DNA of 13,411 nt from a virus (lineage: Duplodnaviria; Heunggongvirae; Uroviricota; Caudoviricetes). Each line of letters starts with the position of its first letter. Position 1 is the first letter of the stretch. Where the stretch lies: the IMG/VR virus record IMGVR_UViG_2548876950_000004, positions 1 to 13,411 of that record. One strand, 5' to 3'. Below, one piece after another: positions 1 through 13,171 of the stretch. The notes beneath the pieces were generated by a model. The model did no database searches. It saw nothing but the letters and a program-made list of their open reading frames with translations, and had not been told where the DNA came from. The position numbers and the translations under genes are program-made.

Positions 1-54
1 CTGGCAGCCTGAGTTCACAGATAAAACACTCTCCAGGAAACCCGGGGCGGTTCA
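1..54 (-). mobile_element. Terminal inverted repeat of an IS3-family insertion sequence (element body lies left of the window)
   Basis: Positions 2-54 are the exact reverse complement of 13359-13411. Read inward the end begins TGAACCGCCCCGGG, the TG...-type terminus I recall for IS3-family elements such as IS629. The identity runs to the window edge and stops abruptly at 54/55. Confidence 0.5.
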
Positions 55-157
55 AAACGCCCATGATTTTACAGGCTTTTGATACGTTGCTGAGTTCTTC
101 AGCCAGATTGAGCAAACCGGCTTTGTGTTTGATAACGGGATTGGTAGTATGAAGCAT
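55..157 (-). pseudogene. N-terminal fragment of an HTH-type protein, truncated at the IS junction
   Basis: ATG at 155-157 (reverse strand) preceded by GAGGT. Translation MLHTTNPVIKHKAGLLNLAEELSNVSKACKIMGV then runs straight into the IS-end sequence. The LAEELS-VSKACKIMGV stretch looks like the first helices of an HTH motif. Confidence 0.35.
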
Positions 158-280
158 GAGAGTTACCTCGTGTTTTGTATAAGGATTCGACACCCATATC
201 AAAACCGGTAACTCTCAACCTTTCAAGGCTCAGTGTCAGATCAAGTCGCGACTAATACACTCAATTCCATCATAAACTTC

Positions 281-409
281 TCAGTTGTTAGCTTTTGCCG
301 AACTGGAAAGCGCCTGTTTAAACTCACTGAAGCTGAGAGCTTCTTCGCCTTCGGCAAGGCCTTCGAAGTATTCTTCGTAAGCCTTTTTCATGATTGTGTC
401 GAAATCCAT
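281..409 (-). CDS. Small hypothetical protein, 42 aa (possibly YdaG-like)
   Basis: ATG at 407-409 (reverse strand) with AGGTGA 5 nt upstream; translation MDFDTIMKKAYEEYFEGLAEGEEALSFSEFKQALSSSAKANN, stop at 281-283. Below the 60-aa ORF-track cutoff. Sits upstream of the repressor like the small genes of Rac-type prophages. Confidence 0.4.
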   Translation of the reverse strand: MDFDTIMKKAYEEYFEGLAEGEEALSFSEFKQALSSSAKANN

Positions 410-419
410 ATCACTCACC

Positions 420-566
420 TTAGTTTCTTTCCAACCAGCGACGTGCGCCAGCTTCGGTTTTAAACGATTTGCTTTTGGTATACGTCATGGCGGTGAATGT
501 GCCGTCCTGATTGGGAAACACGCCACATACCAGAGATTCGTTGTTGCCAAGATCGATAGTATCCAT
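420..566 (-). CDS. Small hypothetical protein, 48 aa (possibly YdaF-like)
   Basis: Internal start MDTIDLGNNESLVCGVFPNQDGTF... of the 420..629 ORF, with GAGGT 4-5 nt upstream. The longer 69-aa form has no obvious ribosome-binding site. Confidence 0.4.
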   Translation of the reverse strand: MDTIDLGNNESLVCGVFPNQDGTFTAMTYTKSKSFKTEAGARRWLERN

Positions 567-816
567 GTTGACCTCATTTCCCCTTAACGCCGGGTGGCGG
601 AACGTTTTATCTACTGCGCTTTGTATCAATCAACAACTGCCGTCATGTTCGTATGCCTCAGGCTGGCTACTTAGCCCTGTTCAGTGGCTGGATAACTCGA
701 GGTATTGTCCAGCCGTTCTCTGGTGGGGCGTTGTTTGGATATGCTTATTAAACACAATGCGTTTTCTTATGTAAACACGAAATGTGTTTTGTGGTGAGTG
801 TCATATGATGATGGTA

Positions 817-841
817 CAAAAAAGCCCGCTGATAGCGGGCT
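817..841 (-). terminator. Intrinsic terminator downstream of the repressor gene
   Basis: Hairpin AGCCCGCT-GAT-AGCGGGCT (823-841) flanked by an A-run on the plus strand (817-822), which is a U-run after the hairpin on the minus strand. Confidence 0.6.
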
Positions 842-871
842 GATTGGCATATTACTGTGATAGCAAGATCA

Positions 872-1291
872 TTACTCCGGTGGGGGATTATCTTTAAGCC
901 TGCCTCTCAAATATTTTTCTACATACTCATCGATTTCTTTTAGCCGGACTTCAAATAGCTCAATCATTCGTTGTTGTTCTGAGCCAGGTAGCTGGTTAAA
1001 CAACTCAAGAAGTTTTCGTTGGGATTCATTTAACCACAATTCAGAAGATTCCTGTTCTCCAAATAGGAGCTCAGGAGGAGATATGCCAAGTGCCTTTCCC
1101 AATACGACAGCGTCATGCACTCCAACATTTCTGCTGCCCGCCTCATAGTTACCTATACGCGATTGCGTCCATCCGCAGATTTCAGCAAGTTTTCCTTGAG
1201 ATAAACCAAGCTTCTGCCTGCGCTCTTTAAGACGCATTGCAATTTTGTCATTGAGCCTACTAGCGGCAATTTTTTCGTTTTCTTTTTCCAT
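872..1291 (-). CDS. CI-like prophage repressor, XRE-family HTH, 139 aa, no S24 peptidase domain
   Basis: HTH segment LGLSQGKLAEICGWTQSRIGNYEAG; divergently oriented to a Cro-like gene across a 96-bp operator region; C-terminal part is charged/coiled-coil like with no Ser-Lys autocleavage domain. Confidence 0.8.
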   Translation of the reverse strand: MEKENEKIAASRLNDKIAMRLKERRQKLGLSQGKLAEICGWTQSRIGNYEAGSRNVGVHDAVVLGKALGISPPELLFGEQESSELWLNESQRKLLELFNQLPGSEQQRMIELFEVRLKEIDEYVEKYLRGRLKDNPPPE

Positions 1292-1387
1292 TGCATCCTT
1301 GTATCACGAATCGTGATTTACATAAAACACAAAACAGCTTGACCATATAACACAAGGTGTGTTTAAAATTGTCATCGGAGGTTTTCA
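1292..1387. promoter_or_regulatory. Immunity-switch operator/promoter region between divergent repressor and cro-like genes
   Basis: Contains palindrome ATCACGA-A-TCGTGAT (1303-1317), imperfect palindrome AACACA-AGG-TGTGTT (1349-1363) and a TTGACC -35-like hexamer (1336-1341). Confidence 0.6.
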
Positions 1388-1630
1388 ATGAACAAAATTT
1401 CAACATATCGAAAACAGCTTGGGCTGTCTCAAAGACAACTTGCTGTTCAGTTAGGGTGGATACAAAGCCGACTGGCAAATTACGAAGCAAATTTTCGTAC
1501 CCCTGGACTAGAGGAGTGCAGAAAAATTGTTTCTACCCTTAATCGGCTTGGCGCTCATTGTGGACTTGACGATGTATTCCCCCCAGACGGTAAGCATAGC
1601 GAAAACAGCATAGGAGCGGTTGATTCATGA
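1388..1630 (+). CDS. Cro-like HTH regulator, 80 aa (YdaS-like)
   Basis: GGAGG 6 nt upstream of the ATG. HTH LGLSQRQLAVQLGWIQSRLANYEA shares the GW-QSR-NYEA recognition-helix motif with the repressor. Stop overlaps the next start (ATGA at 1627-1630). Confidence 0.75.
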   Translation: MNKISTYRKQLGLSQRQLAVQLGWIQSRLANYEANFRTPGLEECRKIVSTLNRLGAHCGLDDVFPPDGKHSENSIGAVDS

Positions 1631-2049
1631 AAATCAGGCATGAGCACATCGAATCAGTGTTGTTAGCCCTGGCAGCCGAAAAAGGGCAGGCGTGGGTCGC
1701 TAACGCAATTACTGAAGAATATCTGCGCCAGGGGGGCGGCGAATTGCCCCTTGTACCAGGCAAGGACTGGAACAATCAGCAGAATATCTATCACCGTTGG
1801 TTGAAAGGTGAAACGAAAGCGCAAAGGGAAAAAATTCAGAAACTGATCCCTGCGGTTCTGGCAATTCTTCCGCGCGAGCTGCGTCACCGACTCTGCATCT
1901 TCGATACCCTGGAACGCCGTGCATTACTGGCGGCGCAGGAAGCGTTGAGTACGGCAATTGATGCGCATGATGATGCAGTCCAGGCCGTTTACCGGAAAGC
2001 ACATTTCAGCGGTGGTGGGTCGCCCGGCGATTCTGTCGTAGTGCATTGA
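1627..2049 (+). CDS. YdaT/CII-like prophage regulatory protein, 140 aa
   Basis: Translationally coupled to the cro-like gene; N-terminus MKIRHEHIE and the position after cro match my recollection of the Rac ydaS-ydaT arrangement. Identity is from recalled family features only. Confidence 0.5.
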   Translation: MKIRHEHIESVLLALAAEKGQAWVANAITEEYLRQGGGELPLVPGKDWNNQQNIYHRWLKGETKAQREKIQKLIPAVLAILPRELRHRLCIFDTLERRALLAAQEALSTAIDAHDDAVQAVYRKAHFSGGGSPGDSVVVH

Positions 2050-2126
2050 TTGAAATTAATCGTGCCGGATTGTTTTGTTCGGTATCAGTTAAATGTAACG
2101 CTGCGAGCGTTACAAGGTGAAAACAA

Positions 2127-2909
2127 ATGGCTTCAAACTGGATAAAGCTCGAGGTTATTACGCCGGATAAGCCGGAAATATTCAGGCTTGCTGAGATTCT
2201 GAATATTGATCCAGATGCCGCATTAGGGAAGGTTATTCGCTTCTGGGCATGGGCGGATCAACAAATGATAGACGGTAATGCAGATTGTAACGCTCGCGGC
2301 GTTACAAAAAGTGCAATAGATCGCATCACTTTTATGGCTGGTTTTGCTGATGCGTTAATTCAGGTTGGATGGCTGATCGAAAATGACGGTGGGCTTTCTC
2401 TACCTAACTTTGAACGTCATAACGGGAAAAGCTCTAAAAAACGGGCGGTTACAAACGAGCGAGTAACAAAAATACGCGAACTGCAACGAAAAGGTAACGC
2501 TGCCAGCGTTACACAAACGGATCAAAAAGCGTTACCAGAGGAAGAGGAAGATATAAATACTGATCTCCCCCTAAATCCCCCTCGCCAAAAACGAGCGTCT
2601 AAAAAATTCGAGCCGGAGGCTATCGAGCTGCCTGACTGGTTGCCGGAAACACTCTGGCATGAGTGGTTTCAGTTCAGGCAGGCATTGCGAAAACCGATTC
2701 GAACGGAGCAGGGCGCTAACGGGGCGATACGGGAACTGGAAAAATTCCGTCAGCAGGGTTTTACACCTGAGCAGGTGATTCGACACAGCATCGCCAATGA
2801 ATACCAGGGCCTGTTCGCGCCGAAAGGTGTTCGGCCTGAGACGTTGCTCCGACAGGTTAACACCGTCTCGTTGCCGGACAGTGCGATCCCGCCAGGCTTC
2901 AGGGGGTAA
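2127..2909 (+). CDS. Replication initiation/primosomal protein, DnaT-like C-terminus (YdaU-like), 260 aa
   Basis: AGGTGA ribosome-binding site; sits directly upstream of the DnaC-like gene, as in the dnaT-dnaC and lambda O-P arrangements; C-terminal W/F-rich segment DWLPETLWHEWFQFRQALRKP; gene body carries repeated palindromes. Confidence 0.55.
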   Translation: MASNWIKLEVITPDKPEIFRLAEILNIDPDAALGKVIRFWAWADQQMIDGNADCNARGVTKSAIDRITFMAGFADALIQVGWLIENDGGLSLPNFERHNGKSSKKRAVTNERVTKIRELQRKGNAASVTQTDQKALPEEEEDINTDLPLNPPRQKRASKKFEPEAIELPDWLPETLWHEWFQFRQALRKPIRTEQGANGAIRELEKFRQQGFTPEQVIRHSIANEYQGLFAPKGVRPETLLRQVNTVSLPDSAIPPGFRG

Positions 2910-2915
2910 CGGACC

Positions 2916-3662
2916 ATGAAAAATATTGCGACAGGCGGTGTTCTTGAACGTATCCGTAAGCTGGCTCCGCAGCATGTAACCGCGCCGTACCGGACAGTGG
3001 ACGAGTGGCGAGAGTGGCAGCTTGCAGAAGGGCGAAAACGTAGCGAGGAGATCAACCGCCTGAATCGTCAGTTGCGGGTGGAAAAAATTCTGAATCGCTC
3101 AGGCATCCAGCCGTTGCATCGTAAATGCTCGTTTGCAAATTACCAGGTGCAGAACGACGGCCAGCGATACGCGTTAAGCCAGGCGAAATCCATCGCCGAT
3201 GAACTGATGACCGGGGGTACAAATTTTGCGTTCAGCGGAAAACCTGGTACCGGGAAGAACCACTTAGCGGCAGCTATCGGAAATCGCCTGCTGAAAGATG
3301 GCCAGACAGTGATTGTGGTTACTGTGGCTGATGTTATGAGTGCCCTGCATGCCAGCTATGACGACGGACAGTCAGGCGAAAAATTTTTGCGGGAACTGTG
3401 CGAAGTGGATCTGCTGGTTCTTGATGAGATTGGCATTCAGCGCGAGACGAAAAACGAGCAGGTGGTACTGCACCAGATTATTGATCGACGGACAGCGTCG
3501 ATGCGTAGCGTGGGAATGCTGACAAATCTGAACTATGAGGCCATGAAAACATTGCTCGGTGAGCGGATTATGGATCGCATGACCATGAACGGCGGACGCT
3601 GGGTGAATTTTAACTGGGAGAGCTGGCGTCCGAATGTCGTCCAGCCAGGAATTGCGAAGTAA
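2916..3662 (+). CDS. DnaC-like helicase loader, AAA+ ATPase (IstB/DnaC family), 248 aa
   Basis: Walker [16 protein letters not shown] and Walker [10 protein letters not shown]; size and placement after the initiator gene. Confidence 0.85.
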
Positions 3663-3684
3663 TTTTTACCGGGAGAAAAATTTA

Positions 3685-4446
3685 ATGGAGACTGTTTTTG
3701 ACGCACTGAAAGCAATGGGAAAAGCCACATCCATAGAACTTGCTGCGCGACTTGATATCAGTCGTGAAGAGGTACTGAACGAGCTGTGGGAACTGAAAAA
3801 AGCTGGTTTTGTTGATAAAACCGCGTACACCTGGCGCGTGGCTGAAAACAACGTTCAGCAGGAACAGTCAGCGCAGGCAGAACTGCCGGAAGAAACCACC
3901 ACAGCAACAGTAGCGAAAATCTCAGAGTGCGATTTAACCGCAACGATTGAACAACGCGGACCACAAACGGCTGATGAGCTGGCTACATTGTTTGATACCA
4001 CATCACGCAAAGTGTCTTCAACGCTGGCAATGGCAATCAGCAAAGGTCGTCTGATTCGCGTAAATCAGGGCGGTAAATTTCGTTACTGCATACCGGGCGA
4101 TAATTTACCAGCAGAGCCGAAAGCAGCATCGGTAGCGGAAACTGATGGTAAAGCCTTTCCTCAGCCTGCATGTGTTGCGTTACCAGTACAGGAAGCTGCA
4201 ACACAGGAAGATATTAAAACAGAAACGATGGCGGACATTGTGCAGTCGCTGCCATCGTTTACTGCAACGCGATCTGATGATTTGATTTTGCCATCGCTGC
4301 ATTTGGCAAACCGCGAACTGCGTCGGGCGAAAAATCATGTCCAGAAGTGGGAGCGTGTCTGCGCCGCGCTGCGTGAGTTGAACAAGCACAGGGATATTGT
4401 ACGACAGATTACTGATTCTTCCCGCCATGTTGCATCGGAAAAGTGA
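3685..4446 (+). CDS. Hypothetical phage protein with two winged-helix-like segments, about 253 aa
   Basis: Start chosen at ATG 3685 (GGGAGA upstream) to avoid overlap with the DnaC-like gene. Segments [30 protein letters not shown] and [35 protein letters not shown] resemble winged-helix DNA-binding folds. Confidence 0.55.
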
Positions 4447-4461
4447 TTGCCGGAGGCGCTT

Positions 4462-4854
4462 ATGGCAAAAGTATTTACACAAGAAGAGCGGGAAGAAGTG
4501 AAGGCGCGCATTGTGGAATTCGTGCGCCTGAGCGGACGAGAAACTTTTCGACAACTGGCAGATAAAACGGGTGTCAGTAAGACCGCTATTCGTCGTTTAT
4601 CTGGTGCGCTTGCGGCCAGTGGTGATGTCTGGCTCTCTGGTTGCGGGGTATTTCCATCAGAGCAGGCGTATCGCGTATGGCGTAAGACACCGGAGAAGGC
4701 TGCTGACCCGACACTGATTCGAAAGTTACCTGACGGAGAAATACGTCGTTACAACAGACGGCAGAACATAATTTGTCGTGAGTGCCGCCAGAGCGAAGTT
4801 ATGCAGCGTGTGCTGGCGTTCTATCGGGGAAACTTTCAGGAGGTGATGTTGTGA
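4462..4854 (+). CDS. Hypothetical HTH-containing protein, about 130 aa
   Basis: GGAGG 5 nt upstream of ATG 4462; HTH-like FRQLADKTGVSKTAIRRLSG; stop overlaps the next gene's start. Confidence 0.5.
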   Translation: MAKVFTQEEREEVKARIVEFVRLSGRETFRQLADKTGVSKTAIRRLSGALAASGDVWLSGCGVFPSEQAYRVWRKTPEKAADPTLIRKLPDGEIRRYNRRQNIICRECRQSEVMQRVLAFYRGNFQEVML

Positions 4855-5324
4855 GTGAGTCGGCTACCATTCTCGACATGTGCTGTGGCAGTCGCATGTT
4901 CTGGTTTGATAAGAATGACGAACGGGCGATATTTAGCGATATCAGAAAAGAAGAGCACACATTGTGTGATGGACGACGCCTGATTATCAGTCCTGACCTG
5001 ATAGCAGATTTTCGAGCATTACCATTTGCAGACGCATCGTTTCCGGTTGTTGTATTCGACCCTCCGCATCTTGAGCGTGTTGGTGATAACGCCTGGATGG
5101 GAAAGAAATATGGACGGCTGAATAAAGATACCTGGCGAGATGATTTGCGGCAGGGATTTAAAGAAGCCTTTCGTGTGTTGTGCCCACGCGGCGTTCTGAT
5201 TTTTAAATGGAATGAAACGCAAATACCTGTTCGCCAGATATTGGTACTGACCGACAGAAAACCTGTTATCGGTCAACGAACAGGAAAAAACGATAAAACC
5301 CACTGGATTATTTTTATGAAATAG
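4851..5324 (+). CDS. Putative small SAM-dependent DNA methyltransferase (N6-adenine type, DPPH motif), about 157 aa
   Basis: GTG start at 4851 with AGGAGG 6 nt upstream. Motif I-like ILDMCCGSRMF followed by motif IV-like VVFDPPHL, the order seen in gamma-type amino-methyltransferases. Confidence 0.45.
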   Translation: MSESATILDMCCGSRMFWFDKNDERAIFSDIRKEEHTLCDGRRLIISPDLIADFRALPFADASFPVVVFDPPHLERVGDNAWMGKKYGRLNKDTWRDDLRQGFKEAFRVLCPRGVLIFKWNETQIPVRQILVLTDRKPVIGQRTGKNDKTHWIIFMK

Positions 5325-5572
5325 GCATCCAGTGAGTAGGTTCGTAAGGTTACAGATGCGTATATCTGAATAATTAAATTCAGTTCTGTAAATAAAATTT
5401 AATCCTTAACCGGAGGGATTCCTGCACCCTCAGAACATCAGGAGACCGCCCGAAAGGGCGGTAATGAAAAATGGCTGAATGAACCAAATGGCTACAAAAC
5501 ACGATTACCGGAATTGAAACGGTAGTAGACGATAAATCGTTTGTATGTGATGAAATAGTATTCAAAATCGAT

Positions 5573-5938
5573 GTGGTTAAAAACGTACTTACCGCATTTA
5601 AAGTCGCGCTGGTATCGCTGGAAGCCGAACCGGTGACATGGCGATATCGCTACGTGAGAAAAGGCGTTACGAACTTTCAGGAGAAGCCGTGGGTTGGTGA
5701 CTGGAAATATGTACCGACAAAAGAGGATTGCAACGACAGGCCGAACTATGAAATTCAGGCGTTATTCACGGCCCAGCCTGTGCCACTGACACCCGAAGGA
5801 TTGATTAAAGCGGTGCGCTTCTATGAACAGGTTAAGAGTGAAAATCCGCCAGTCGAAACCGGAGCATGGAAAGACGCTGTTGACTGGGTGCTCAAAGAGG
5901 CTTGTCAGGCTGTAAACATTGGCATCAAAGGAGAGTGA
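5573..5938 (+). CDS. Hypothetical protein, 121 aa, start uncertain
   Basis: Long ORF with no internal Met; GTG start at 5573 lacks a clear ribosome-binding site. Leads a co-oriented, tightly packed cluster. Confidence 0.45.
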   Translation: MVKNVLTAFKVALVSLEAEPVTWRYRYVRKGVTNFQEKPWVGDWKYVPTKEDCNDRPNYEIQALFTAQPVPLTPEGLIKAVRFYEQVKSENPPVETGAWKDAVDWVLKEACQAVNIGIKGE

Positions 5939-5939
5939 G

Positions 5940-6131
5940 ATGAACGGACAAATCTCAATTGTTCGACCGGGAGCATGTGACGATTGCGAGATACGAATGA
6001 TTATTCGTCTGGCGATGGGGAAAACAATAACTGCTCTCATTACTCCAGAAAATCTCGCATTAGCATTAACAGGAAAGTCAGACCTGCCAGTAGAGCTAAA
6101 GCTGCGAAATGTTGAGATTAAGGTGAAATAG
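5940..6131 (+). CDS. Hypothetical protein, 63 aa
   Basis: ATG at 5940 with AAGGAGAG 5 nt upstream, two bases after the upstream stop; ends 2 bp before the next gene. Confidence 0.5.
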   Translation: MNGQISIVRPGACDDCEIRMIIRLAMGKTITALITPENLALALTGKSDLPVELKLRNVEIKVK

Positions 6132-6133
6132 CT

Positions 6134-7555
6134 ATGACCACTATTACCAAAGAGCGACTGCTGACAATCAAGCAGTGGCGCGAAACATACGGACCTGGTA
6201 GCAACGTTGTACTGCCAGCAGAAGAAGCGGAAGAACTGGCACGGATTGCACTGGCATCATTGGAAGCAGATCCAGTTAAACGAGTTAACTCAGATCAGAT
6301 GCACCGAGTCTGCTTAGAAGCTAATCGCTATTTAGATAAATATGACGCGATGGCGAAAGAGGTAAATAAGTTGCTTGGACGCATCGCCCCGCCAGCGCCA
6401 GTATTTAACGGCGAATACGGTGACGCATATCAGGGCGCTCGTGAAGACCTGTCCATCTGGAAACGGCGAGCGCTTGAAGCTGATGAGCACGTTCGGCGAC
6501 TGGAGCAAATCAATGACCACATGGTGAAAGAGGCGCAGGGAGAATCACGCATGGGCGAGCCTGTAATACGTGAGCCAGCACCGGTAGTGCCTGAAGAAGC
6601 AACTCCGGAAAACGTAGAAATGCTCTCTGGCTATGTTTCAACGTACAAATTAACCGATAGCGAGCGCGATATTGCTGCCGAAATATGGAACGCCTGCCGC
6701 GCCGCCATGCTTCAGTCAGGAAACTTTCGGGAAAACAAGAATTCGTCAACCAATAATTTTCGGGAAATCGAGGAAACGTCAACCAACTATCCGGCAATTC
6801 CTAGTGAGGTGTTGTCCGCAATCCTGAAGGTTGCCAGGATTCGTGCCGATTTCGATGATTTTGACGGTGACAGGCGAGGTATCGGTGATTGTCTGGATGA
6901 GGCTGAGCAAGAGCTTATCGTTACCATTAACAAATATGCCAGTCAGTTGGCAGCAGAACCGATAGCGACTAATGACGTTCGAGAGCAGCAGACAGCCGTT
7001 CCGCCAGTTCCGGAAATACAGGCTGATGTCGCGCAAGCAATTGAAAATCTCAAGCAGAAGCTAGTGGAATGTAATCGCTATAACTACTGCGCAGATGCAG
7101 TTAAAGGCGTAGAGGATGCCTGCCGTGCTGTTAGCTATAGCCAAGCCGACAATCAACCAGCATCTGGCAACCAGGCTGCCGAATCCAATCGCGGTAATGA
7201 GTGGACCGGCAATCCTGATATTGATAACGCCATCATCATGCTCGACCGCATAGATACGCTGGAAAATTGCGATGATGACCGTATTGAGGCTGTTAAGGCT
7301 GTTTTGCGTAGACTGGCTGGCAACTATCCGGTAACTCCGGATGGTTGGATAAGCTGTAGTGAGCGAATGCCGAATACCAAAACAGCCGTTCTTGTTGCCG
7401 TGGAGTTTGACAGGAAAGGTGACTGGCGAATGAAATGGGCTACTTACATCCCGGGGCATCCTGACGCTAATGATGGGTGGATAATTCCTGGTGCGTCGTG
7501 GAAACCGTCACACTGGATGCCGCTACCAGAACCGCCGCAGGAGGTGCGCCAATGA
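6134..7555 (+). CDS. Large hypothetical phage protein with DUF551-like C-terminus, 473 aa
   Basis: AAGGTGA ribosome-binding site; acidic, low-complexity central region; C-terminal WISCSERMP...SHWMPLPEPP matches the recalled DUF551 signature. Confidence 0.6.
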   Translation: MTTITKERLLTIKQWRETYGPGSNVVLPAEEAEELARIALASLEADPVKRVNSDQMHRVCLEANRYLDKYDAMAKEVNKLLGRIAPPAPVFNGEYGDAYQGAREDLSIWKRRALEADEHVRRLEQINDHMVKEAQGESRMGEPVIREPAPVVPEEATPENVEMLSGYVSTYKLTDSERDIAAEIWNACRAAMLQSGNFRENKNSSTNNFREIEETSTNYPAIPSEVLSAILKVARIRADFDDFDGDRRGIGDCLDEAEQELIVTINKYASQLAAEPIATNDVREQQTAVPPVPEIQADVAQAIENLKQKLVECNRYNYCADAVKGVEDACRAVSYSQADNQPASGNQAAESNRGNEWTGNPDIDNAIIMLDRIDTLENCDDDRIEAVKAVLRRLAGNYPVTPDGWISCSERMPNTKTAVLVAVEFDRKGDWRMKWATYIPGHPDANDGWIIPGASWKPSHWMPLPEPPQEVRQ

Positions 7556-7635
7556 TCTGGCCTGAAGCCTTTGCAATTACAGGCGTTGCTATAGCTATTG
7601 ATTTTTTAGTATATGTTATTTGTCGGTGGGGGTAA
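7552..7635 (+). CDS. Tiny hydrophobic peptide, 27 aa
   Basis: ATG overlaps the upstream stop (ATGA) with GGAGGTG upstream; translation MIWPEAFAITGVAIAIDFLVYVICRWG is a single predicted transmembrane helix. Below ORF-track cutoff. Confidence 0.4.
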   Translation: MIWPEAFAITGVAIAIDFLVYVICRWG

Positions 7636-7670
7636 AAACGTTCGCCGGGATTCACACCAAAGGAGGGAAT

Positions 7671-7775
7671 ATGTCGGATGATATTTCACTGGCAATGGAA
7701 GGTGCGCTGGCTGTTATTGCTGTTGTGGGCGTTTACTGCCTGGTTGTGTTTTTGATGGATCGACTAGGGAACTGA
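7671..7775 (+). CDS. Tiny hydrophobic peptide, 34 aa
   Basis: AAAGGAGGGAAT-ATG; translation MSDDISLAMEGALAVIAVVGVYCLVVFLMDRLGN with a central hydrophobic helix. Below ORF-track cutoff. Confidence 0.45.
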   Translation: MSDDISLAMEGALAVIAVVGVYCLVVFLMDRLGN

Positions 7776-7783
7776 ATTCATTA

Positions 7784-7805
7784 CGATATGGGAATTCCCA
7801 TATCG
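7784..7805. repeat. Perfect 22-bp palindrome CGATATGGGAATTCCCATATCG
   Basis: Exact self-complement with a central GAATTC, 9 bp after the 34-aa peptide stop and upstream of the hok locus; no T-run follows, so not a classical terminator. Confidence 0.7.
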
Positions 7806-7909
7806 GGTAAAAACGGTTTGCGGTAAAGCGAGAGTTAAGTAGAATTGCTGCGGGTGCTTGAGGCTATCTGCCTCGGGCATGCCACCGTAAGGCAGACAGA
7901 GAAAAGCCC

Positions 7910-7975
7910 CAGTTAACATTACGCGTCCGGCAAGACGCTTAACATTAATCTGAGGCCATATCTATGCTCTACACA
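7910..7975 (-). ncRNA. Expected position of the Sok-like antisense RNA of the hok locus (approximate, not delimited)
   Basis: Placed by analogy with hok/sok architecture, where the antisense RNA overlaps the leader and upstream start region. Promoter and 3' end could not be pinned from sequence. Confidence 0.25.
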
Positions 7976-8020
7976 CGTAGGTTAGCCTCTTACGTGCCGA
8001 AAGGCAAGGAGAAGCAGGCT

Positions 8021-8176
8021 ATGAAGCAGCAAAAGGCGATGTTAATCGCCCTGATCGTCATCTGTTTAACCGTCATAGTGACGGCACTGGTAACGAGGAA
8101 AGACCTCTGCGAGGTACGAATCCGAACCGGTCAGACGGAGGTCGCTGTCTTCGTAGACTACGAATCTGAGAAGTAA
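8021..8176 (+). CDS. hok: Hok/Gef-family type I toxin, 51 aa; in-frame upstream start at 7964 gives a 70-aa Mok-like form
   Basis: MKQQKAMLIALIVICLTVIVTALVTRKDLCEVRIRTGQTEVAVFVDYESEK has the hallmark Hok/Gef transmembrane segment and TRKDLCEV...GQTEVA motif; AGGAG upstream of ATG 8021. Confidence 0.8.
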   Translation: MKQQKAMLIALIVICLTVIVTALVTRKDLCEVRIRTGQTEVAVFVDYESEK

Positions 8177-8244
8177 GAGACCAGGCGGGGGAGTAATCTC
8201 CCGCCACCTCTGATGTGTCAGGCATCCTCAACGCACCCGCACTA

Positions 8245-8267
8245 AACCCGCTTCGGCGGGTTTTTTG
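8245..8267 (+). terminator. Intrinsic terminator at the 3' end of the hok transcript
   Basis: Hairpin AACCCGC-TTCG-GCGGGTT followed by TTTTTTGTT; a second GC-rich hairpin lies just upstream (about 8192-8210). Confidence 0.7.
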
Positions 8268-8451
8268 TTGCGTGCTGAATGCGCAGGGTGAAAAATAACC
8301 ATATATTTGATTATATACACAACAAAAAATAAAAGTCATTGTACCTGCACATTAAATAATCAAATATACAGCGTGAAATAAATATTTTTCAGATTAATAT
8401 TTTTGTCTCTATGTGGATATAACCGTTTGTACTTATAAACTCGGAGGCATC

Positions 8452-8664
8452 GTGGAAAAAATAAAGAAACTATTTAGTTGCAAATACGCAGTCATACGTC
8501 GTGATGACCTGTCAGTTATAGTCGAAATGGATTACTTCCCTGAAACCCCAAAATCAATGATGTATCGTAATGGTCGAAAGGCAATTTTTTTACCGATGAG
8601 GGTAAGTGACATTATGGGAAATGATAAACTGCTGGATGAATTGCGAGTCAGAGCATCCTGTTAG
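8452..8664 (+). CDS. Hypothetical protein, about 70 aa
   Basis: GTG at 8452 with GGAGG 4 nt upstream, preferred over the ATG at 8413 which lacks a ribosome-binding site; AT-rich promoter-like region upstream. Confidence 0.45.
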   Translation: MEKIKKLFSCKYAVIRRDDLSVIVEMDYFPETPKSMMYRNGRKAIFLPMRVSDIMGNDKLLDELRVRASC

Positions 8665-8735
8665 TATTGGCATTAATTCTGGTATACTACATAACGGGCT
8701 GAACACCCATTCTACTGCGCCAGCGGAGAACTACG

Positions 8736-9335
8736 ATGGCGCATATACAACTGGTCAAACAAACCTCTTCCGGATTACTTCTCCCGGCGACACCGGAGAG
8801 TTGCGATTTTTTGCATCAAATCAAAATAGGCGAGTGGATACACGCAGACTTTAAGCGTGTGCGTAACTACGCATTCCACAAGCGTTTTTTCAAACTCCTG
8901 CAACTGGGATTCGATTACTGGACTCCGGTCGGTGGGGCGATCACGCCTCGCGAACGAGAACTGCTGTCTGGTTTCGTTGATTACCTGTGCGAATCAGTTG
9001 GTCGGGAACACACGCCAGCCCTGAGTGATGCCGCAGAGCAATATCTGAATACAGTTGCGACACGCAGAACCCGGGATACGGCATTGTTAAAGTCGTTTGA
9101 GGCTTTTCGCGAGTGGGTAACCATTCAGGCTGGATTTTACACCGAACATTTTTATCCGGACGGTAGCCATGGGCGTCGGGCGAAATCCATCGCTTTTGCG
9201 AATATGGACGAAACCGAGTTTCAGCAGGTTTATAAATCTGTTCTGAATGTGCTGTGGAACTGGATTCTGTTCCGTAAATTTTCCTCTCCGGAACAAGTCG
9301 AAAATGTGGCCGCGCAGCTGCTGGAGTTTGCGTAA
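8736..9335 (+). CDS. Conserved lambdoid nin-region protein, 199 aa
   Basis: GGAGA 6 nt upstream of the ATG; stop overlaps the next start (TAATG); family assignment (DUF1367-like) is from memory only. Confidence 0.55.
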   Translation: MAHIQLVKQTSSGLLLPATPESCDFLHQIKIGEWIHADFKRVRNYAFHKRFFKLLQLGFDYWTPVGGAITPRERELLSGFVDYLCESVGREHTPALSDAAEQYLNTVATRRTRDTALLKSFEAFREWVTIQAGFYTEHFYPDGSHGRRAKSIAFANMDETEFQQVYKSVLNVLWNWILFRKFSSPEQVENVAAQLLEFA

Positions 9336-9625
9336 TGGTGGATTTACGTAAAGCGGCGCGGGGGCAGATGTGCACCGTCAGAATTCCTGGCTACTGCAAT
9401 CACGATCCGGAAACGTCTGTGCTGGCGCATTACCGACTGGCGGGAACGTGCGGAACAGCGATAAAGCCACACGATATGCAGGCAGCGATTGCCTGTAGCT
9501 CGTGCCACGATTTAATCGACGGGCGGGTAAAAACCGGCGATTACACCAAAGAAGAATTACGCCTGATGCATGCAGAAGGTGTTTTTCGCACACAAGAAAT
9601 CTGGAGAAAGGAGGGATATTTATGA
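9335..9625 (+). CDS. YbcO-like (DUF1364) cysteine-rich protein, putative nuclease, 96 aa
   Basis: Size and several cysteines (CTVRIPGYC...CGT...ACSSCHD) fit the YbcO family that sits before Q in lambdoid prophages; translationally coupled on both sides. Confidence 0.55.
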   Translation: MVDLRKAARGQMCTVRIPGYCNHDPETSVLAHYRLAGTCGTAIKPHDMQAAIACSSCHDLIDGRVKTGDYTKEELRLMHAEGVFRTQEIWRKEGYL

Positions 9626-10176
9626 TTTACCCAACGAATACAGGAAAAAGCGGAGAACACCTTCGTCTCACCACGCTGGAAAGTGTCTGGATTCAGGGAA
9701 AACTACGTATGTGGGGGCGCTGGTCGTATATTGGCGGCGGTAAGACGGGAAATATGTTTAACCAGTTGCTGACCTCTAAAAAGCTAACAAAAACGGCAAT
9801 TAATGAGGCGCTCCGGAGGATGAAAAAAGCAGGTCTGGACAAACCTGAACTTGAGGCTTTTTTGCGGGATATGATCAACGGCAAGCAAAAAAGCTGGCTG
9901 GTGCATTGTACTGATGCAGAGGCGTTATGCATTGATCGGGTGATTAGTGAAGTGCTGGCAGAACACCCAGGATTGATTTGTATCCTCCGGCAAAGATATG
10001 AAGGGCGGGGGATGAGTAAGCGCAAAATGGCTGAATTGCTAAATGATGCACACCCTGAGTGGTGTTTTCGGACGTGCTGCAGTCGGGTAGATGTATGGCT
10101 AAATCTTGCTGAATATATGCTCTATCTGCCGATGCGTGATGCATTCTCTTCCGGGTATTTAAAAACTGTCTGTTGA
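9622..10176 (+). CDS. Putative late-gene antiterminator Q, 184 aa
   Basis: Called mainly from position: last gene of the nin-like block, immediately followed by a strong promoter overlapping its stop and a short terminated leader. Strong AAAGGAGGG ribosome-binding site. Sequence family not confirmed. Confidence 0.5.
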   Translation: MIYPTNTGKSGEHLRLTTLESVWIQGKLRMWGRWSYIGGGKTGNMFNQLLTSKKLTKTAINEALRRMKKAGLDKPELEAFLRDMINGKQKSWLVHCTDAEALCIDRVISEVLAEHPGLICILRQRYEGRGMSKRKMAELLNDAHPEWCFRTCCSRVDVWLNLAEYMLYLPMRDAFSSGYLKTVC

Positions 10177-10202
10177 CTCAATCTGTTATCCGGGGCTATA
10201 TT
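10173..10202 (+). promoter_or_regulatory. PR'-like late promoter (TTGACT-N18-TATATT)
   Basis: -35 TTGACT at 10173-10178 overlaps the stop of the upstream gene; -10 TATATT at 10197-10202. Confidence 0.55.
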
Positions 10203-10264
10203 CCTCACGCGCCAGCAAAATCTGGCGTCGGGATTAGGAACCCCGGATAGAGACCGCGACAGAC

Positions 10265-10287
10265 ACACGCCGCGAGCGTGTTTTTTA
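10265..10287 (+). terminator. tR'-like intrinsic terminator ending a short (about 80 nt) leader RNA
   Basis: Hairpin ACACGC-CGCGA-GCGTGT followed by TTTTTTATT, about 60-80 nt downstream of the PR'-like promoter. Confidence 0.65.
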
Positions 10288-10449
10288 TTGTCGTATGCAC
10301 GCGCACATCTGAATTATGGTGGGGCGTATGGGGGAGCTGAAAAGCTCGCCGGTTGGTTTCCCGGTAGTTCCTAACCCTGTACGTCTCACCACCCGATGAT
10401 TAGGAACCTGACGGTGGTGATGGTTTAGAAACCACCAGAGGGCGTCATT

Positions 10450-11031
10450 ATGACAACTCAAATTTCTGTTGAAACTCTCTCCCCGATCACCCATAACCAG
10501 ATTCCTGTTATTACCACCGAACTTTTGGCGCAGTTGTACGGTGCTGGAGTTAAGAACATTCAAAATAACTACGCCAGAAATGCTGAGCGCTTTATTGAAG
10601 GAAAGCATTTTTTCAAAGTGGCTGGCGATGCCCTGAAAAATTTGCGGGTAGCTTTAAACTACTCACAAAATTTGCAACCATCTTTAAGAGGGTTACAAAT
10701 TTCCCCGAAAGCCCGCTCCCTCATCCTCTGGACAGAACGCGGAGCAGCCCGTCATGCCAAAATGCTGGAAACCGATCAGGCGTGGGATGTGTTCGAAAAG
10801 CTGGAAGACTGCTATTTCAGACAAAAGGATCCGTCAGCGCCAGTTTCATGCCAGAAAAGTTACGACACGCGAGTTCTCTGTTATCAGAGAGGCGGTGTCA
10901 CTGTTTCCACAATTCAGTTACGGGATGATGATATTGTTATTTCCCTTGAGTCATGGCTGGAACTGGCGAGAGCCAATGGTTGGTTTGTTGTTCGCAGAGA
11001 TAAACTGGTGGAAAGGTTGATGCAGCTTTAA
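10450..11031 (+). CDS. ORF6N/KilA-N-like domain protein (antirepressor-type regulator), 193 aa
   Basis: N-terminal IPVITTELLAQLYGAGVKNIQNNYARNAERFIEGKHFFKV matches the recalled ORF6N consensus (LAELYG...RN..RF...F). Confidence 0.55.
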   Translation: MTTQISVETLSPITHNQIPVITTELLAQLYGAGVKNIQNNYARNAERFIEGKHFFKVAGDALKNLRVALNYSQNLQPSLRGLQISPKARSLILWTERGAARHAKMLETDQAWDVFEKLEDCYFRQKDPSAPVSCQKSYDTRVLCYQRGGVTVSTIQLRDDDIVISLESWLELARANGWFVVRRDKLVERLMQL

Positions 11032-11128
11032 AAAAGTTCTTGCATTTTTGCACATAAACTGCTTCAATTCCTGTATGCTTCGCAAAGCTGTATCGCGAGG
11101 CGAAACGCAAGTTTTTTTCGCACAAGGA

Positions 11129-11151
11129 AGCCACCGGAAGGTGGTTTTTTT
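11129..11151 (+). terminator. Intrinsic terminator after the ORF6N gene
   Basis: Hairpin CCACC-GGAA-GGTGG followed by TTTTTTT. Confidence 0.65.
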
Positions 11152-11274
11152 GTGTCCGTAATATACAGCAGCGCAATAAATTCGCTGGTGGTTATTAATA
11201 CCGTTCTTTCAGCTTGCTGGCTTTTTCGACAAGAGTTATTGGTATGTCACGTTAACCGGAAAGGGTAAAAAGAC

Positions 11275-11472
11275 ATGCTGAAACAGCAGGATATGACAGA
11301 AACCGCCAGAGTTGTGTTTGATGAATTAAGCGTTACCGAACCGGCGACAGTCGGGGAGATTGCGCAGAATACTTACCTTTCACGCGAACGCTGCCAGTTA
11401 ATACTGACCCAGCTGGTTATGGCGGGTCTGGCAGACTATCAGTGCGGTTGTTACAGACGCATTCAGTCCTGA
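11275..11472 (+). CDS. Small putative DNA-binding protein, 65 aa
   Basis: ORF with a weak AAGGG ribosome-binding site; the VGEIAQNTYLSRERCQLILTQLVMAGL segment looks like a winged-helix/HTH. Confidence 0.4.
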   Translation: MLKQQDMTETARVVFDELSVTEPATVGEIAQNTYLSRERCQLILTQLVMAGLADYQCGCYRRIQS

Positions 11473-11505
11473 AGGCTTTTTATTTGTGGTAAATGGGCGG
11501 CTGGT

Positions 11506-11513
11506 GGGGGGGG
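11506..11513. repeat. Homopolymeric G8 tract upstream of the AraC-family gene
   Basis: Eight consecutive G (GGTGGGGGGGGCGG) about 95 bp upstream of the ATG at 11608. Confidence 0.8.
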
Positions 11514-11607
11514 CGGCACCTGTCAGTCCTTTGCTTATGTGTTGATGATAATTTACCTTTTGGGGCTATAATTGAGCTAACCAATTGCTAATGAAAGTAA
11601 AATTATA

Positions 11608-12321
11608 ATGGCTGTTGTCTGTTCAGTTATCATGGTTTGCTCCCCAATTAATATTTTTCTTGAAAAGGATACGTTGTCACTTAAGCCAGGCTCAGTCGTT
11701 CTGGCCACCAAATGCATCAGGGAGCTTTTCCTTATGCATTATGGCAAAGTTAAAATTGTCGATATAAGCGAATCCGTCGTAAGTCAATATCTGGAAAGTC
11801 AGCATAAGCTGACGAGGACTCGTCTGACTGACATTCCGCTTTACCTGTTGCTGGAACCCAACAATCCTGCGTTGGCTGCGGCTTTAATTACCAGCCAGGG
11901 ATTTTCCGGAGAGGTCACGGATATGTTTCTTATGATGGCCTGCCTGTCTCTGTTTGAAACAGATGAACGGATGTCATTGTTTTTAAGTGGATGTTTATCC
12001 AGCATAAGTGCCAAAGTCAGGGCGATAATTCAGACAGATATATCAGCAAGCTGGACGCTTGGTGCGATTGCTCTACAGTTGCATATGAGTGAGAGTTTGT
12101 TAAAGACAAAACTGAAAAATGAAGGGGGCATGTTCAGTCGCTTGTTGCTGGAAGAGCGGATGCGTGTTGCTGTAAATATGTTATGTTCCCGGCATGGATA
12201 TGGACAGGCTGTAGCAGAAAAATGCGGTTATTCAAGCAGGTCCTACTTTATTTCTGTATTTCACCGCTATTATGGCTTCCCGCCAGACAGATATGTATCC
12301 AGGCAAGGGCTTGATTATTGA
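11608..12321 (+). CDS. AraC/XylS-family transcriptional regulator, 237 aa
   Basis: C-terminal double-HTH typical of the family (SWTLGAIALQLHMSESLLKTKLK...YGQAVAEKCGYSSRSYFISVFHRYYGFPP); located in the cargo slot between Q and the lysis genes. Confidence 0.75.
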   Translation: MAVVCSVIMVCSPINIFLEKDTLSLKPGSVVLATKCIRELFLMHYGKVKIVDISESVVSQYLESQHKLTRTRLTDIPLYLLLEPNNPALAAALITSQGFSGEVTDMFLMMACLSLFETDERMSLFLSGCLSSISAKVRAIIQTDISASWTLGAIALQLHMSESLLKTKLKNEGGMFSRLLLEERMRVAVNMLCSRHGYGQAVAEKCGYSSRSYFISVFHRYYGFPPDRYVSRQGLDY

Positions 12322-12349
12322 TTTTCATCTGATTATTATTTTTTGGCTC

Positions 12350-12425
12350 GGCCCTTTAGCTCAGTGGTGAGAGCGAGCGACTCATAATCGCCAGGTCGCT
12401 GGTTCAAATCCAGCAAGGGCCACCA
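12350..12425 (+). tRNA. tRNA with CAU anticodon (Ile2/Met type, ileX-like)
   Basis: Cloverleaf by hand: acceptor GGCCCTT/AAGGGCC, anticodon loop CTCATAA, T-loop TTCAAAT, 3' CCA. Close to the host ileX sequence as I recall it. Confidence 0.7.
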
Positions 12426-12426
12426 A

Positions 12427-12503
12427 CCGCCACTAGCTCATCAGGAAAGAGCGTCAACCCTTTAAGTTGAGTGTGCGAGGTTCGAGTCCCCGGTGGCGGT
12501 CCA
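12427..12503 (+). tRNA. Atypical tRNA-like gene, anticodon UUU (Lys-like), possibly a pseudo-tRNA
   Basis: Acceptor CCGCCAC/GTGGCGG with CCA end, D-arm and TTCGAGT T-loop present, but C at position 33, a C1:G72 start and one T-stem mismatch. Confidence 0.45.
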
Positions 12504-12505
12504 GT

Positions 12506-12581
<76 letters not shown>

Positions 12582-12584
12582 TAT

Positions 12585-12659
<75 letters not shown>

Positions 12660-12866
12660 GTTAGAGTCTTTCAGTCTGCGATGATGGGAAATCCCGGAGT
12701 GACTGAAAGACGTTTAGGTTATGAATGATCGCTTTTTTTTGCAAAATTGCTGTGCAGAAATACTAACCTTCGGGCAGGCGATCATTCATAAGCACTCTGC
12801 TTTTATTCCGATTAACTGTGGGTGGTTTGTTGGATAGAGTGCTTTCCTGACTGTAGATCCAATTTC

Positions 12867-12891
12867 GCCCGCTTTTGCGGGCTTTTCTTTT
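12867..12891 (+). terminator. Intrinsic terminator downstream of the tRNA cluster
   Basis: Hairpin GCCCGC-TTTT-GCGGGC followed by TTTTCTTTT. Confidence 0.7.
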
Positions 12892-12951
12892 CAAATCCCT
12901 TTCATCTCTCAGTGTAAAACTACGCCATCCGTTATTTGCGGAGGTGAGGCT

Positions 12952-13167
12952 ATGAAATCCATGGACAAAATTTCAACGGGCATTGCCTACGGCACCTCCG
13001 CAGGCAGTGCTGGCTACTGGTTTTTACAGTGGCTTGATCAAGTCAGTCCGTCACAGTGGGCTGCGATTGGTGTACTGGGGAGTCTGATTCTGGGCTTCCT
13101 GACTTATCTGACAAATCTGTACTTCAAAATCAGAGAAGACAAGCGTAAGGCTGCACGGGGAGAGTAA
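12952..13167 (+). CDS. Phage 21-type class II holin (pinholin) with dual-start motif, 71 aa
   Basis: [27 protein letters not shown]...[13 protein letters not shown] closely matches S21 as I recall it, including the M-K-S-M dual start (12952 and 12961); GGAGGTGAGG ribosome-binding site. Confidence 0.85.
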
Positions 13168-13171
13168 TTCA

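Follow-up and report, generated by a model that had tools for sequence, protein, structure and literature searches.

A lysis-lysogeny switch of the DicA/Gifsy short-repressor class in an Escherichia coli lambdoid prophage and its candidate AnrP-type antirepressor

How a lambdoid prophage may leave the lysogenic state when its repressor is devoid of a self-cleavage domain is the question raised by a divergent gene pair at positions 872-1630 of the IMG/VR virus record IMGVR_UViG_2548876950_000004, of which positions 1 to 13,411 were analysed as a whole and are referred to below as the window. The window is the early region of an Escherichia coli lambdoid prophage, and the locus is a lysis-lysogeny switch of the Rac/Qin/Gifsy lineage: two divergent open reading frames (ORFs) flank a 96-bp intergenic region (1292-1387), and in near-identical E. 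coli prophages both are also called as genes by the NCBI annotation. An initial annotation of this DNA had proposed a short repressor without a LexA/CI-type S24 domain, a Cro-like protein that carries the same recognition-helix motif and competes for the same operators, and a distant ORF6N protein as candidate antirepressor. Considered as a whole, the locus is probably best explained as an immunity switch in which a repressor that is not cleaved is inactivated by an antirepressor of the AnrP type. The genes of the switch proper are the following.

872-1291, minus strand: repressor gene (CI analogue), 139 aa, DicA/Gifsy short-repressor family
1388-1630, plus strand: Cro-like gene, 80 aa, XRE helix-turn-helix; its stop codon overlaps the ydaT start (ATGA)
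1627-2049, plus strand: YdaT-family gene, functional analogue of lambda CII (Pfam YdaT_toxin PF06254, E value 5e-11)

The repressor and its Cro-like partner

In Pfam the repressor matches HTH_3/HTH_31 alone (residues 18-80); its XRE helix-turn-helix (HTH) spans about residues 13-77, and about 60 residues remain C-terminal to it. The profile search for an S24 domain that had been suggested together with the initial annotation was run on the repressor and returned no Peptidase_S24 match in Pfam at E ≤ 0.1. S24 domains have a beta-rich fold; the AlphaFold2 model of the repressor (31 homologues, predicted local distance difference test score (pLDDT) 87) is all helical and consists of a five-helix HTH domain, a short linker and helices 89-99 and 103-133, and Foldseek comparison with the PDB matched HTH domains alone (C.AhdI, the N-terminal domain of P22 c2, the 434 repressor, SinR and Stl). 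Pfam, the structural model and the fold search agree on an XRE HTH protein lacking S24, as initially annotated, and a cryptic S24 domain is ruled out by all three. The 120 homologues listed carry HTH Pfam domains only and, fragments and one 202-aa entry aside, range in length from 119 to 143 residues; PADLOC defence models gave generic HTH 'control protein' matches only.

BLASTP aligns the repressor with DicA of the Qin prophage over the full length (29% identity, residues 14-135, E value 2e-15), and the best NCBIfam model is 'transcriptional repressor DicA' (NF007257, E value 1.4e-15, profile positions 4-131 of 135). Since the score of 57 bits lies under the curated cut-off of 101 bits, the protein is to be regarded as a relative of DicA and not as its orthologue. 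In size (139 residues, the class covering about 125-160) and build, with an N-terminal HTH and a helical C-terminus, it conforms to the DicA/Gifsy short repressors; its C-terminal motif LLxLFNQLPxxEQ is common to DicA and the repressor GtgR of Gifsy-1/-2, and within the family conservation is highest in the C-terminal domain. The arrangement typical of these systems is present as well, namely a divergent cro-type gene with candidate operators at the rightward early promoter (PR) and, past the repressor gene, at the leftward one (PL). The switch is thus a further member of an already described class. For this class, the Gifsy repressors of about 136 aa (GfoR, GtgR and GfhR) were reported to stay uncleaved on induction, being bound and inactivated by small LexA-controlled antirepressors, with DicA and RacR named as family members (Lemire et al., PMC3121763), and in Qin the Rem protein lifts DicA repression 165-fold, DicA and DicC forming a bistable switch (Ragunathan et al., PMC10448788).

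Because no peptidase domain is present, inactivation by RecA-stimulated self-cleavage, doubted from the outset, is indeed unlikely, and the behaviour of the DicA/Gifsy relatives points the same way. The alternative that the repressor hides a self-cleaving or protease-targeted element open to RecA-dependent proteolysis appears very improbable. Nothing was found to support it: the linker (residues 78-88, GEQESSELWLN) contains neither an Ala-Gly nor a Cys-Gly cleavage site, and the sole Ala-Gly of the protein, at residues 51-52, exists but lies within the HTH. The lack of an S24 match, the all-helical model, the HTH-only fold matches and the mere 60 residues or so that follow the HTH speak against such an element, as does the experimentally established integrity of the homologous Gifsy repressors (PMC3121763).

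The motif GW-QSR-NYEA, pointed out initially in both divergent proteins, is found exactly in each of them, as GWTQSRIGNYEA at residues 40-51 of the repressor and as GWIQSRLANYEA at residues 23-34 of Cro; an alignment of 42 residues between their HTH domains shows 45% identity (E value 2e-10) and, judged by sequence, these domains are paralogous. In the match to the 434 repressor, which covers query residues 17-82 and chain residues 2-66, Q43, S44, R45 and N48 of the window repressor fall on 434 positions Q28, Q29, S30 and Q33, which we take to be the helix-3 DNA-contact positions; the Cro-like protein has the same Q, S, R and N there. In phage 434 the repressor N-terminal domain and Cro are homologous XRE proteins that share helix-3 contacts and compete for three operators with different preferences. 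The window pair is alike in the identity of these four residues and unlike in the operators, whose sequences are unrelated, and in the 434 repressor being an S24 protein that undergoes cleavage. Competition of both window proteins for the same operators is therefore plausible, given the identity of the predicted contact residues and the fact that in relatives the operator motif accompanies the recognition helix. A relationship of the Cro-like protein to DicC was considered and dropped, no similarity being found.

The Cro-like protein also occurs in a second context. In its cro-ydaT DNA the record 'Actinobacillus phage vB_Apl-pPE4' (PP818812.1) is 95% identical to the window, a figure that falls to 74% for the repressor together with its left flank; its sequence further left is near-identical to an E. 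coli prophage, its ORF6N protein is 91% identical, and the stated host seems doubtful. An identical Cro protein, with cro-ydaT DNA 95.5% identical, is shared by pPE4 and about nine E. coli genomes, the similarity of pPE4-type cassettes to the window beginning precisely with the ATG of cro (1388), left of which they bear a different repressor, 62% identical, with the helix GWSGSSRIANYEA. Every operator in pPE4 and in the E. coli prophage copy L007 belongs to the TCAC-N5-GTGA type. Two operator dialects are served by one and the same Cro protein, which suggests that in this group immunity specificity is set by the repressor and that Cro is generic. The 'home' dialect of Cro would be the TCAC type of pPE4, present in the window only at 1303-1317. 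The junction at 1388 has the look of a hotspot of recombination, or else of a boundary between cassettes by which Cro is kept generic.

Operators and early promoters

A search for repeats disclosed a family of 15-bp sites, A(A/T)CAC-N5-GTG(A/T)T, and with them the following elements could be delineated.

1349-1363: predicted operator AACACAAGGTGTGTT (OR1-like), filling the PR spacer and overlapping the -10 region
1326-1340: OR2-like site, of which only the left half-site AACACA is good; overlaps the PR -35
1303-1317: predicted operator ATCACGAATCGTGAT (OR3-like, TCAC type), a perfect palindrome located 12-26 bp ahead of the repressor start codon (ATG)
774-788: predicted operator AACACGAAATGTGTT at PL, overlapping the PL -35
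751-765: second predicted PL operator AACACAATGCGTTTT, left half-site conserved and right one degenerate; situated within the PL spacer and reaching into the -10
1339-1369, plus strand: predicted PR, -35 TTGACC (1339-1344), -10 either TTTAAA (1362-1367, 17-nt spacer) or TAAAAT (1364-1369, 19-nt spacer)
747-775, minus strand: predicted PL, the leftward early promoter, -35 TTTACA (775-770), 17-nt spacer, -10 TTTAAT (752-747)
823-841, minus strand: intrinsic terminator behind the repressor gene; its 8-bp stem includes 6 G-C pairs, and a T run follows
1620-1637: predicted YdaT box TTGATTCATGAAAATCAG at the cro end/ydaT start, in the region analogous to lambda PRE (the promoter for repressor establishment)

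Exact copies of the motif stand at 774-788, 1303-1317 and 1349-1363 and a one-mismatch copy at 751-765, all in the two regulatory regions; at no more than one mismatch the window holds 6 matches against 1.45 expected, a number reached in none of 200 shuffles. The centres of the sites (758 and 781 on the left; 1310, 1333 and 1356 on the right) are spaced so that each neighbouring pair is 23 bp apart. The palindrome ATCACGA-A-TCGTGAT, to which the initial annotation had tied operator function, is real: it is a perfect 7+1+7 palindrome at exactly 1303-1317 and a member of the family, with an arithmetic chance expectation of about 0.8 per 13.4 kb and about 0.006 per 96-bp spacer. Its standing as an operator candidate is upheld, but it turns out to be one of five sites, the odd one of TCAC type, and not the main operator of PR.

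PR was read directly from the sequence; the consensus scan passed it over on account of its A2/T6 rule. PL is the mirror image of PR in geometry and is placed like dicBp of Qin, its -35 being TTGACA in three other alleles; terminator 823-841, invariant in three of four alleles and changed by one substitution in the fourth, sets the repressor gene apart from PL.

Conservation was assessed on four alleles that are about 95% identical. None of the 13 variable intergenic positions falls within the 30 half-site positions (P = 0.005, four alleles), and at PL none of 17 falls within 16 half-site positions (P = 0.002), these half-sites having been partly picked after viewing the alignment. The half-sites of 1349-1363 and the whole of 1303-1317 are invariant in the four alleles. 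A Salmonella prophage whose repressor is 84% identical and has the same recognition helix follows the same operator plan: AACACAATTTGTGTT stands at PR and, at a distance of 46 bp, ATCACGCATCGTGAT, likewise of TCAC type, adjoins the repressor gene, PL having AACACATTTTGTGTT. CAC-N5-GTG sites are also borne at both promoters by phages Chris1 and pAEv1818, whose repressors show 60-66% identity. Equivalents of 1349-1363 are met in the Salmonella relative and Chris1, and those of 774-788 follow the repressor gene in the Salmonella relative as well as in Chris1, pAEv1818 and pPE4; the OR2-like site 1326-1340 may be filled cooperatively. The base preceding CAC in the site beside the repressor gene differs from that of the PR site, being T in the window and in Salmonella and C in pAEv1818, as would be expected if the affinity ranking for the two proteins differs there, like at OR3 in lambda. 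Binding of Cro first beside the repressor gene would fit with its TCAC home dialect in pPE4.

As to the third gene of the cassette, YdaT of the window matches over its full length the structure of CP-933P YdaT (8bt1) and 3c4r. In CP-933P, YdaS and YdaT are described as the Cro and CII analogues, with YdaT binding to TTGATT-N6-AATCAA where the cro analogue ends (Jurenas et al., PMC8630535; Prolic-Kalinsek et al., PMC9986795). The window box TTGATTCATGAAAATCAG differs from this footprinted site by one mismatch and occupies the same place.

The ORF6N gene, its RNA leader and the route of induction

If the repressor is not cleaved, a protein that inactivates it has to be sought, and the candidate named initially is encoded at 10450, downstream of the Q-type gene, in the following context.

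9622-10176, plus strand: Q-type antiterminator gene (DUF1133, E value 1e-106; Phage_antitermQ, E value 3e-6, weak)
10173-10202, plus strand: promoter TTGACT-18-TATATT directly after Q, corresponding to the isrK promoter and in the place of lambda PR'
10209-10286, plus strand: isrK small RNA (Rfam RF01394, full length, 69.4 bits against a gathering score of 50)
10312-10396, plus strand: C4-type antisense RNA element (Rfam RF01695, 67 bits against 45)
10400-10434, plus strand: antisense targets b2 TTAGGAAC (10400-10407) and a2 GAAACCA (10428-10434), immediately 5' of the ORF6N Shine-Dalgarno sequence (10437-10442)
10450-11031, plus strand: AnrP orthologue, ORF6N protein of 193 aa, candidate antirepressor; ORF6N domain at residues 12-105

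The ORF6N domain was confirmed (PF10543, E value 4e-19), and the gene starts 274 bp after the Q-type gene. Its product is 53.9% identical, over 98% of the length, to STM2616 (AnrP) of Gifsy-1, where isrK, C4 and the a1/b1 element stand in the same order between the Q gene STM2617 and STM2616 and are followed by isrJ; Rfam detected no isrJ in the window. In Gifsy-1, too, isrK and C4 exceed their Rfam gathering thresholds. The proposal of an antirepressor role is thereby strengthened by identity to AnrP, by the same post-Q place and by the same isrK/C4 leader. According to Hershko-Shalev et al. (PMC4825925), the isrK promoter drives isrK-orf45-anrP by terminator read-through, IsrK supplied in trans turns on anrP translation, and expression of AnrP alone raises antQ-operon RNA and induces Gifsy-1; AntQ, the Gifsy-1 counterpart of the window Q, is reportedly toxic via global antitermination.

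Within the window leader, isrK ends at an intrinsic terminator (stem 10265-10281) and contains the b1 target TTAGGAAC at 10234-10241, the c4-a1b1 family (RF03163) being recognized at 10196-10249 (47.8 bits against 46.7). The C4 element exposes two loops, a' TGGTTTC (10354-10360) and b' GTTCCTAA (10367-10374); the latter is complementary to TTAGGAAC at both 10234 and 10400, and the former to GAAACCA at 10428. These pairs lie at identical offsets among loci of different specificity. For b they read (target/loop) TTAGGAAC/GTTCCTAA in the window, TTGGCGT/ACGCCAA in Gifsy-1 and L007 and TTGGAAC/GTTCCAA in copy L009, and for a GAAACCA/TGGTTTC in the window and ATCACCG/CGGTGAT in Gifsy-1, this third b-type and mixed combinations being shown by two other E. 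coli prophages. Thus, three b-type and two a-type loop/target pairs covary, both target copies included, and this complementarity supports a working RNA system in the window.

Behind the ORF6N domain lies a C-terminal module, at about residues 127-185, that models as a beta-hairpin and two helices (pLDDT 82). Over residues 137-187 the ORF6N protein matches PHROG family phrog_340 (8.8e-5), a family matched by Rem with 4.4e-21 and by GftA with 0.23. In hhalign the module aligns with the Rem profile over 40-42 columns (score 28, P about 3-5e-5, probability 67-72%), 400 column shuffles of the comparison giving a mean score of 9.6 and a maximum of 19, and with GftA in the same register (P 0.019). 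An exhaustive HMMER search retrieved the module also in proteins of 64 and 102 aa and behind a different N-terminal domain, by eye Rha-like, which fits the behaviour of a mobile, portable effector unit; word-indexed searches with the module and with Rem yielded close relatives only, a set too shallow to build good profiles from. The module is encoded in 129 genomes. A prophage with a repressor of 62% overall identity, very similar in its C-terminal domain, carries it unchanged (100% identity). True homology of the module to Rem is, in our judgement, a reasonably good bet. A bolder proposition, put forward tentatively and with somewhat less than even confidence, is that the last 60 or so residues of AnrP are the repressor-binding module of Rem, GftA and GfoA fused to ORF6N, and that they target the conserved C-terminal helices of DicA-family repressors. 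If so, LexA-controlled small proteins, IsrK-controlled AnrP and Qin Rem would share one portable domain, and a prophage in which no LexA box was found would be induced only via an RNA-gated route.

The Rem-like segment is here the C-terminus of a 193-aa protein and not a stand-alone protein of about 70-90 aa, and no stand-alone gene like Rem or GftA was detected in the window by tblastn with Rem (E > 2), the Rem hidden Markov model (HMM; E > 0.3) or phmmer. A 70-aa ORF with a GTG start at 8452-8664 was considered as a rem counterpart and dropped (P 0.24 against Rem, 0.03 against the AnrP module). This ORF is located just past hok, roughly in rem's place in Qin, and matches PHROG 1813 (function unknown).

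A search for LexA boxes revealed none beyond chance in the window at no more than one mismatch, nor did a 20-mer scan; none was found in the related prophage copies L002, L007 and L008 (stretches of 41, 24 and 26 kb), the known Gifsy-1 dinI box being recovered as a positive control. Given that these scans revealed no LexA box, induction is probably under no direct LexA control. The mechanism that we propose is the following. The repressor, presumably a dimer by analogy with GfoR, would bind A(A/T)CAC-N5-GTG(A/T)T operators 23 bp apart, two per early promoter, covering PR by 1349-1363 and 1326-1340 and PL by 751-765 and 774-788. Occupancy of the TCAC site 1303-1317 would shut off repressor synthesis, as OR3 does in lambda; the Cro-like protein would compete for the repressor's sites and probably prefers the TCAC one, and YdaT, bound to the box at 1620-1637, would boost leftward transcription of the repressor gene. 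Inactivation of the repressor would be accomplished by a protein antirepressor, the prophage's own candidate being the AnrP orthologue, whose gene follows Q and whose translation would be gated by the isrK/C4 antisense RNA leader. Induction may then proceed through signals acting on IsrK, through noise of the switch or through antirepressors of other resident prophages.

Several points weigh against this account. The minus strand of 1292-1387 offers no convincing consensus -35/-10 pair for the repressor-maintenance promoter PRM and, because PRM was not located, the OR3-like role of 1303-1317 is assigned from position alone; in general, binding events, promoter strengths, site preferences and the repressor as the target of AnrP are what we infer. 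The resemblance of the module to Rem is remote: when the ORF6N protein was compared with Rem and GftA by pairwise BLAST, nothing was returned, neither did a narrow Rem HMM find anything, and a fold search of the module model against viral predicted structures produced no significant match. The upstream ORF of the leader (10316-10399) has 27 codons (TGA at 10397-10399) and overlaps C4 and not the anrP start, the frame that ends at 10453 having no start codon in the window, whereas its Gifsy-1 counterpart orf45 has 45 codons, an AUGA overlap with the start of anrP and translational coupling to it. The same GATGA is seen at the aligned position in E. coli copies L007 and L009; the nucleotide sequence of this ORF, which is also that of the C4 RNA, is conserved despite the TGA, and coupling may work otherwise in E. 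coli. Furthermore, ORF6N is a predicted DNA-binding domain of the KilA-N/Bro-N/ORF6N class. In the Gifsy-1 study it was suggested that AnrP may activate transcription (PMC4825925). In the Gifsy prophages, SOS induction passes through LexA-controlled GfoA/GftA (PMC3121763), and right-end deletions of Gifsy-2 demonstrate that induction by mitomycin needs the dinI-irsA interval and nothing further right, so that SOS induction of Gifsy-2 takes a route other than that of AnrP.

Some of these points would find their place in an alternative by which the ORF6N/AnrP protein is a transcription factor activating the Q operon, or acts on other prophages only, the true inactivator being encoded elsewhere, for instance as a small LexA-controlled GfoA- or Rem-like protein that a co-resident prophage supplies in trans. 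We regard it as unlikely, though worth weighing. Besides the predicted DNA-binding nature of ORF6N, it can draw on the documented action of antirepressors in trans between heteroimmune prophages and on FsoA, which is under its own phage's repressor and has no part in that phage's induction (PMC3121763). It has to contend with the resemblance of the C-terminal module to both Rem and GftA in one register and with the recurrence of this module on another N-terminal domain and as short proteins, a pattern of a portable effector. It is likewise disfavoured by the occurrence of every full-length ORF6N-protein homologue examined in a prophage with a short HTH-only repressor, these prophages being interrelated and the cases not independent. 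Moreover, the isrK/C4 leader embodies the type of control familiar from the ant gene of phage P1. An antirepressor directed at the resident repressor is accordingly retained as the preferred function of the ORF6N protein. The prophage copies L008 (19678-20247) and L009 (17588-18157) carry in the lysis cassette a second gene for a 'phage antirepressor N-terminal domain-containing protein', which would lie just past the right end of the window and could be a further candidate.

A different doubt concerns whether the prophage is still a prophage in the functional sense. The best-matching genome carries its copy at the Rac attachment site, adjoining ttcA, and this copy has IS1203 insertions and several pseudogenes; in copies decayed in this manner the switch may just keep toxic genes silent, which is one more consideration against regulated induction. 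Accordingly, the locus could be a domesticated silencing module like RacR-YdaS/YdaT of Rac, with a repressor that merely holds toxic early genes off and is never inactivated in a regulated fashion. RacR and DicA do have a silencing role in K-12, and the CII analogue of the window is labelled 'toxin YdaT' by NCBI. Nevertheless, this possibility appears even less likely than that of an inactivator encoded elsewhere. Positions 700-2100 are matched over at least 80% of their length in 152 complete E. coli genomes; the switch cassette is complete in 153 of 5,426 such genomes, O157:H7, O145, O103 and O111 strains among them, and its operator half-sites are under constraint. In other prophage copies recE, kil and the genes for replication, lysis and packaging are intact, the isrK/C4/anrP module is likewise whole and covaries, and the isolated phages Chris1, pAEv1818 and pPE4 bear related switches.

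Relation to known switches, neighbouring genes and wider meaning

The switch itself is of an ordinary design, already described for the Qin, Rac and Gifsy prophages, and it is instructive to see where it follows each of them and where it departs. With DicA-DicC of Qin it shares a short repressor (135 aa there, 139 here) aligned over the full length and bearing the motif LLELFNxLPxSEQ, a divergent small Cro-type gene, operators between the genes and past the repressor gene at dicBp, that is PL, and a DUF1391 (ydfA-type) gene on the left, with ydfB beside it according to the NCBI annotation of a near-identical copy. It is unlike Qin in the 29% identity of the repressors, in the operators (TTAGC/GCTAA type in Qin), in a Cro unrelated to DicC and in the ydaT gene that follows cro. 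Rem of Qin, encoded between the replication genes and Q and not under LexA control as far as known, has no stand-alone equivalent in the window, where the Rem-like module is the C-terminus of the ORF6N protein.

The Gifsy-1, -2 and -3 prophages (GfoR/GtgR/GfhR) have in common with the window the repressor family and its C-terminal motif, and Gifsy-1 also the order of repressor, Cro, CII analogue, replication genes, Q, isrK, C4 and AnrP. In contrast to Gifsy-1, the window revealed neither a LexA box nor a dinI-gfoA/gftA module, YdaT takes the place of the Gifsy-1 protein annotated as a lambda CII analogue, the specificity of the antisense loops differs, and the upstream ORF is 27 codons long without overlap instead of 45 with AUGA.

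PaaR2-YdaS-YdaT of CP-933P (Sp12) offers a third parallel, drawn from layout and published descriptions: in this lambdoid switch, too, the repressor is HTH-only, the counterpart of Cro is an XRE protein and that of CII is YdaT. The two regulators there bind overlapping repeats in a 97-bp intergenic region and at PL, and the YdaT inverted repeat at the end of the cro analogue is one base different from the window box. The repeats are 18-bp palindromes of the GTTTAGTAA type there, and paaR2 is leaderless and co-transcribed with a toxin-antitoxin pair, unlike the window repressor gene, which is preceded by an AAGGA Shine-Dalgarno sequence and followed by a terminator.

For the RNA leader, the parallel is immI of phages P1 and P7 (c4-icd-ant), in which a C4 antisense RNA with two loops and two targets, and a short upstream ORF, precede the antirepressor gene. 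The window resembles it in the C4-family RNA, in one target next to the ribosome-binding site and in loop/target pairs that define specificity types, and differs in that its module stands directly after Q in a lambdoid genome. To our knowledge, C1 and the antirepressor proteins of P1 are unrelated to their window counterparts. Unlike the P1/P7 RNA, IsrK of Gifsy-1 activates translation rather than represses it (PMC4825925).

Further features accompany the switch in the window. A 473-aa ORF at 6134-7555, related to DUF551 PHROG families, is intact, whereas the closest genome copy has DUF551 pseudogene fragments in this place. A hok/sok type I toxin-antitoxin locus occupies 7852-8176, the sok RNA (RF01794, 112.6 bits) lying at 7852-8026 and a Hok-family ORF ending at 8176. 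An AraC-family regulator gene at 11608-12321, whose best models are YdeO (E value 1e-30) and GadX (5e-25), both far under their curated cut-offs, is situated in a cargo ('moron') position, with the antirepressor gene on one side and the lysis genes on the other, and may regulate host acid-resistance or virulence genes. Between it and the holin gene, four tRNA genes stand in a row (12350-12659) with anticodons CAT, TTT, TGT and TCC; the one with CAT is annotated as tRNA-Ile by NCBI in a near-identical prophage, which suggests a lysidine-modified tRNA-Ile2.

The interest of the locus is modest and resides in a LexA-controlled arm not having been found, in the possible link of AnrP to Rem and GftA and in a Cro protein common to two immunity cassettes. 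If this prophage has no LexA-controlled arm, it would make a clean natural system for induction by IsrK/C4-AnrP without SOS input, and the possible relationship between the AnrP C-terminus, Rem and GftA provides a testable idea of how antirepressors dock on DicA-family repressors. The trigger of such prophages bears, in turn, on the joint awakening of resident prophages in pathogenic E. coli.

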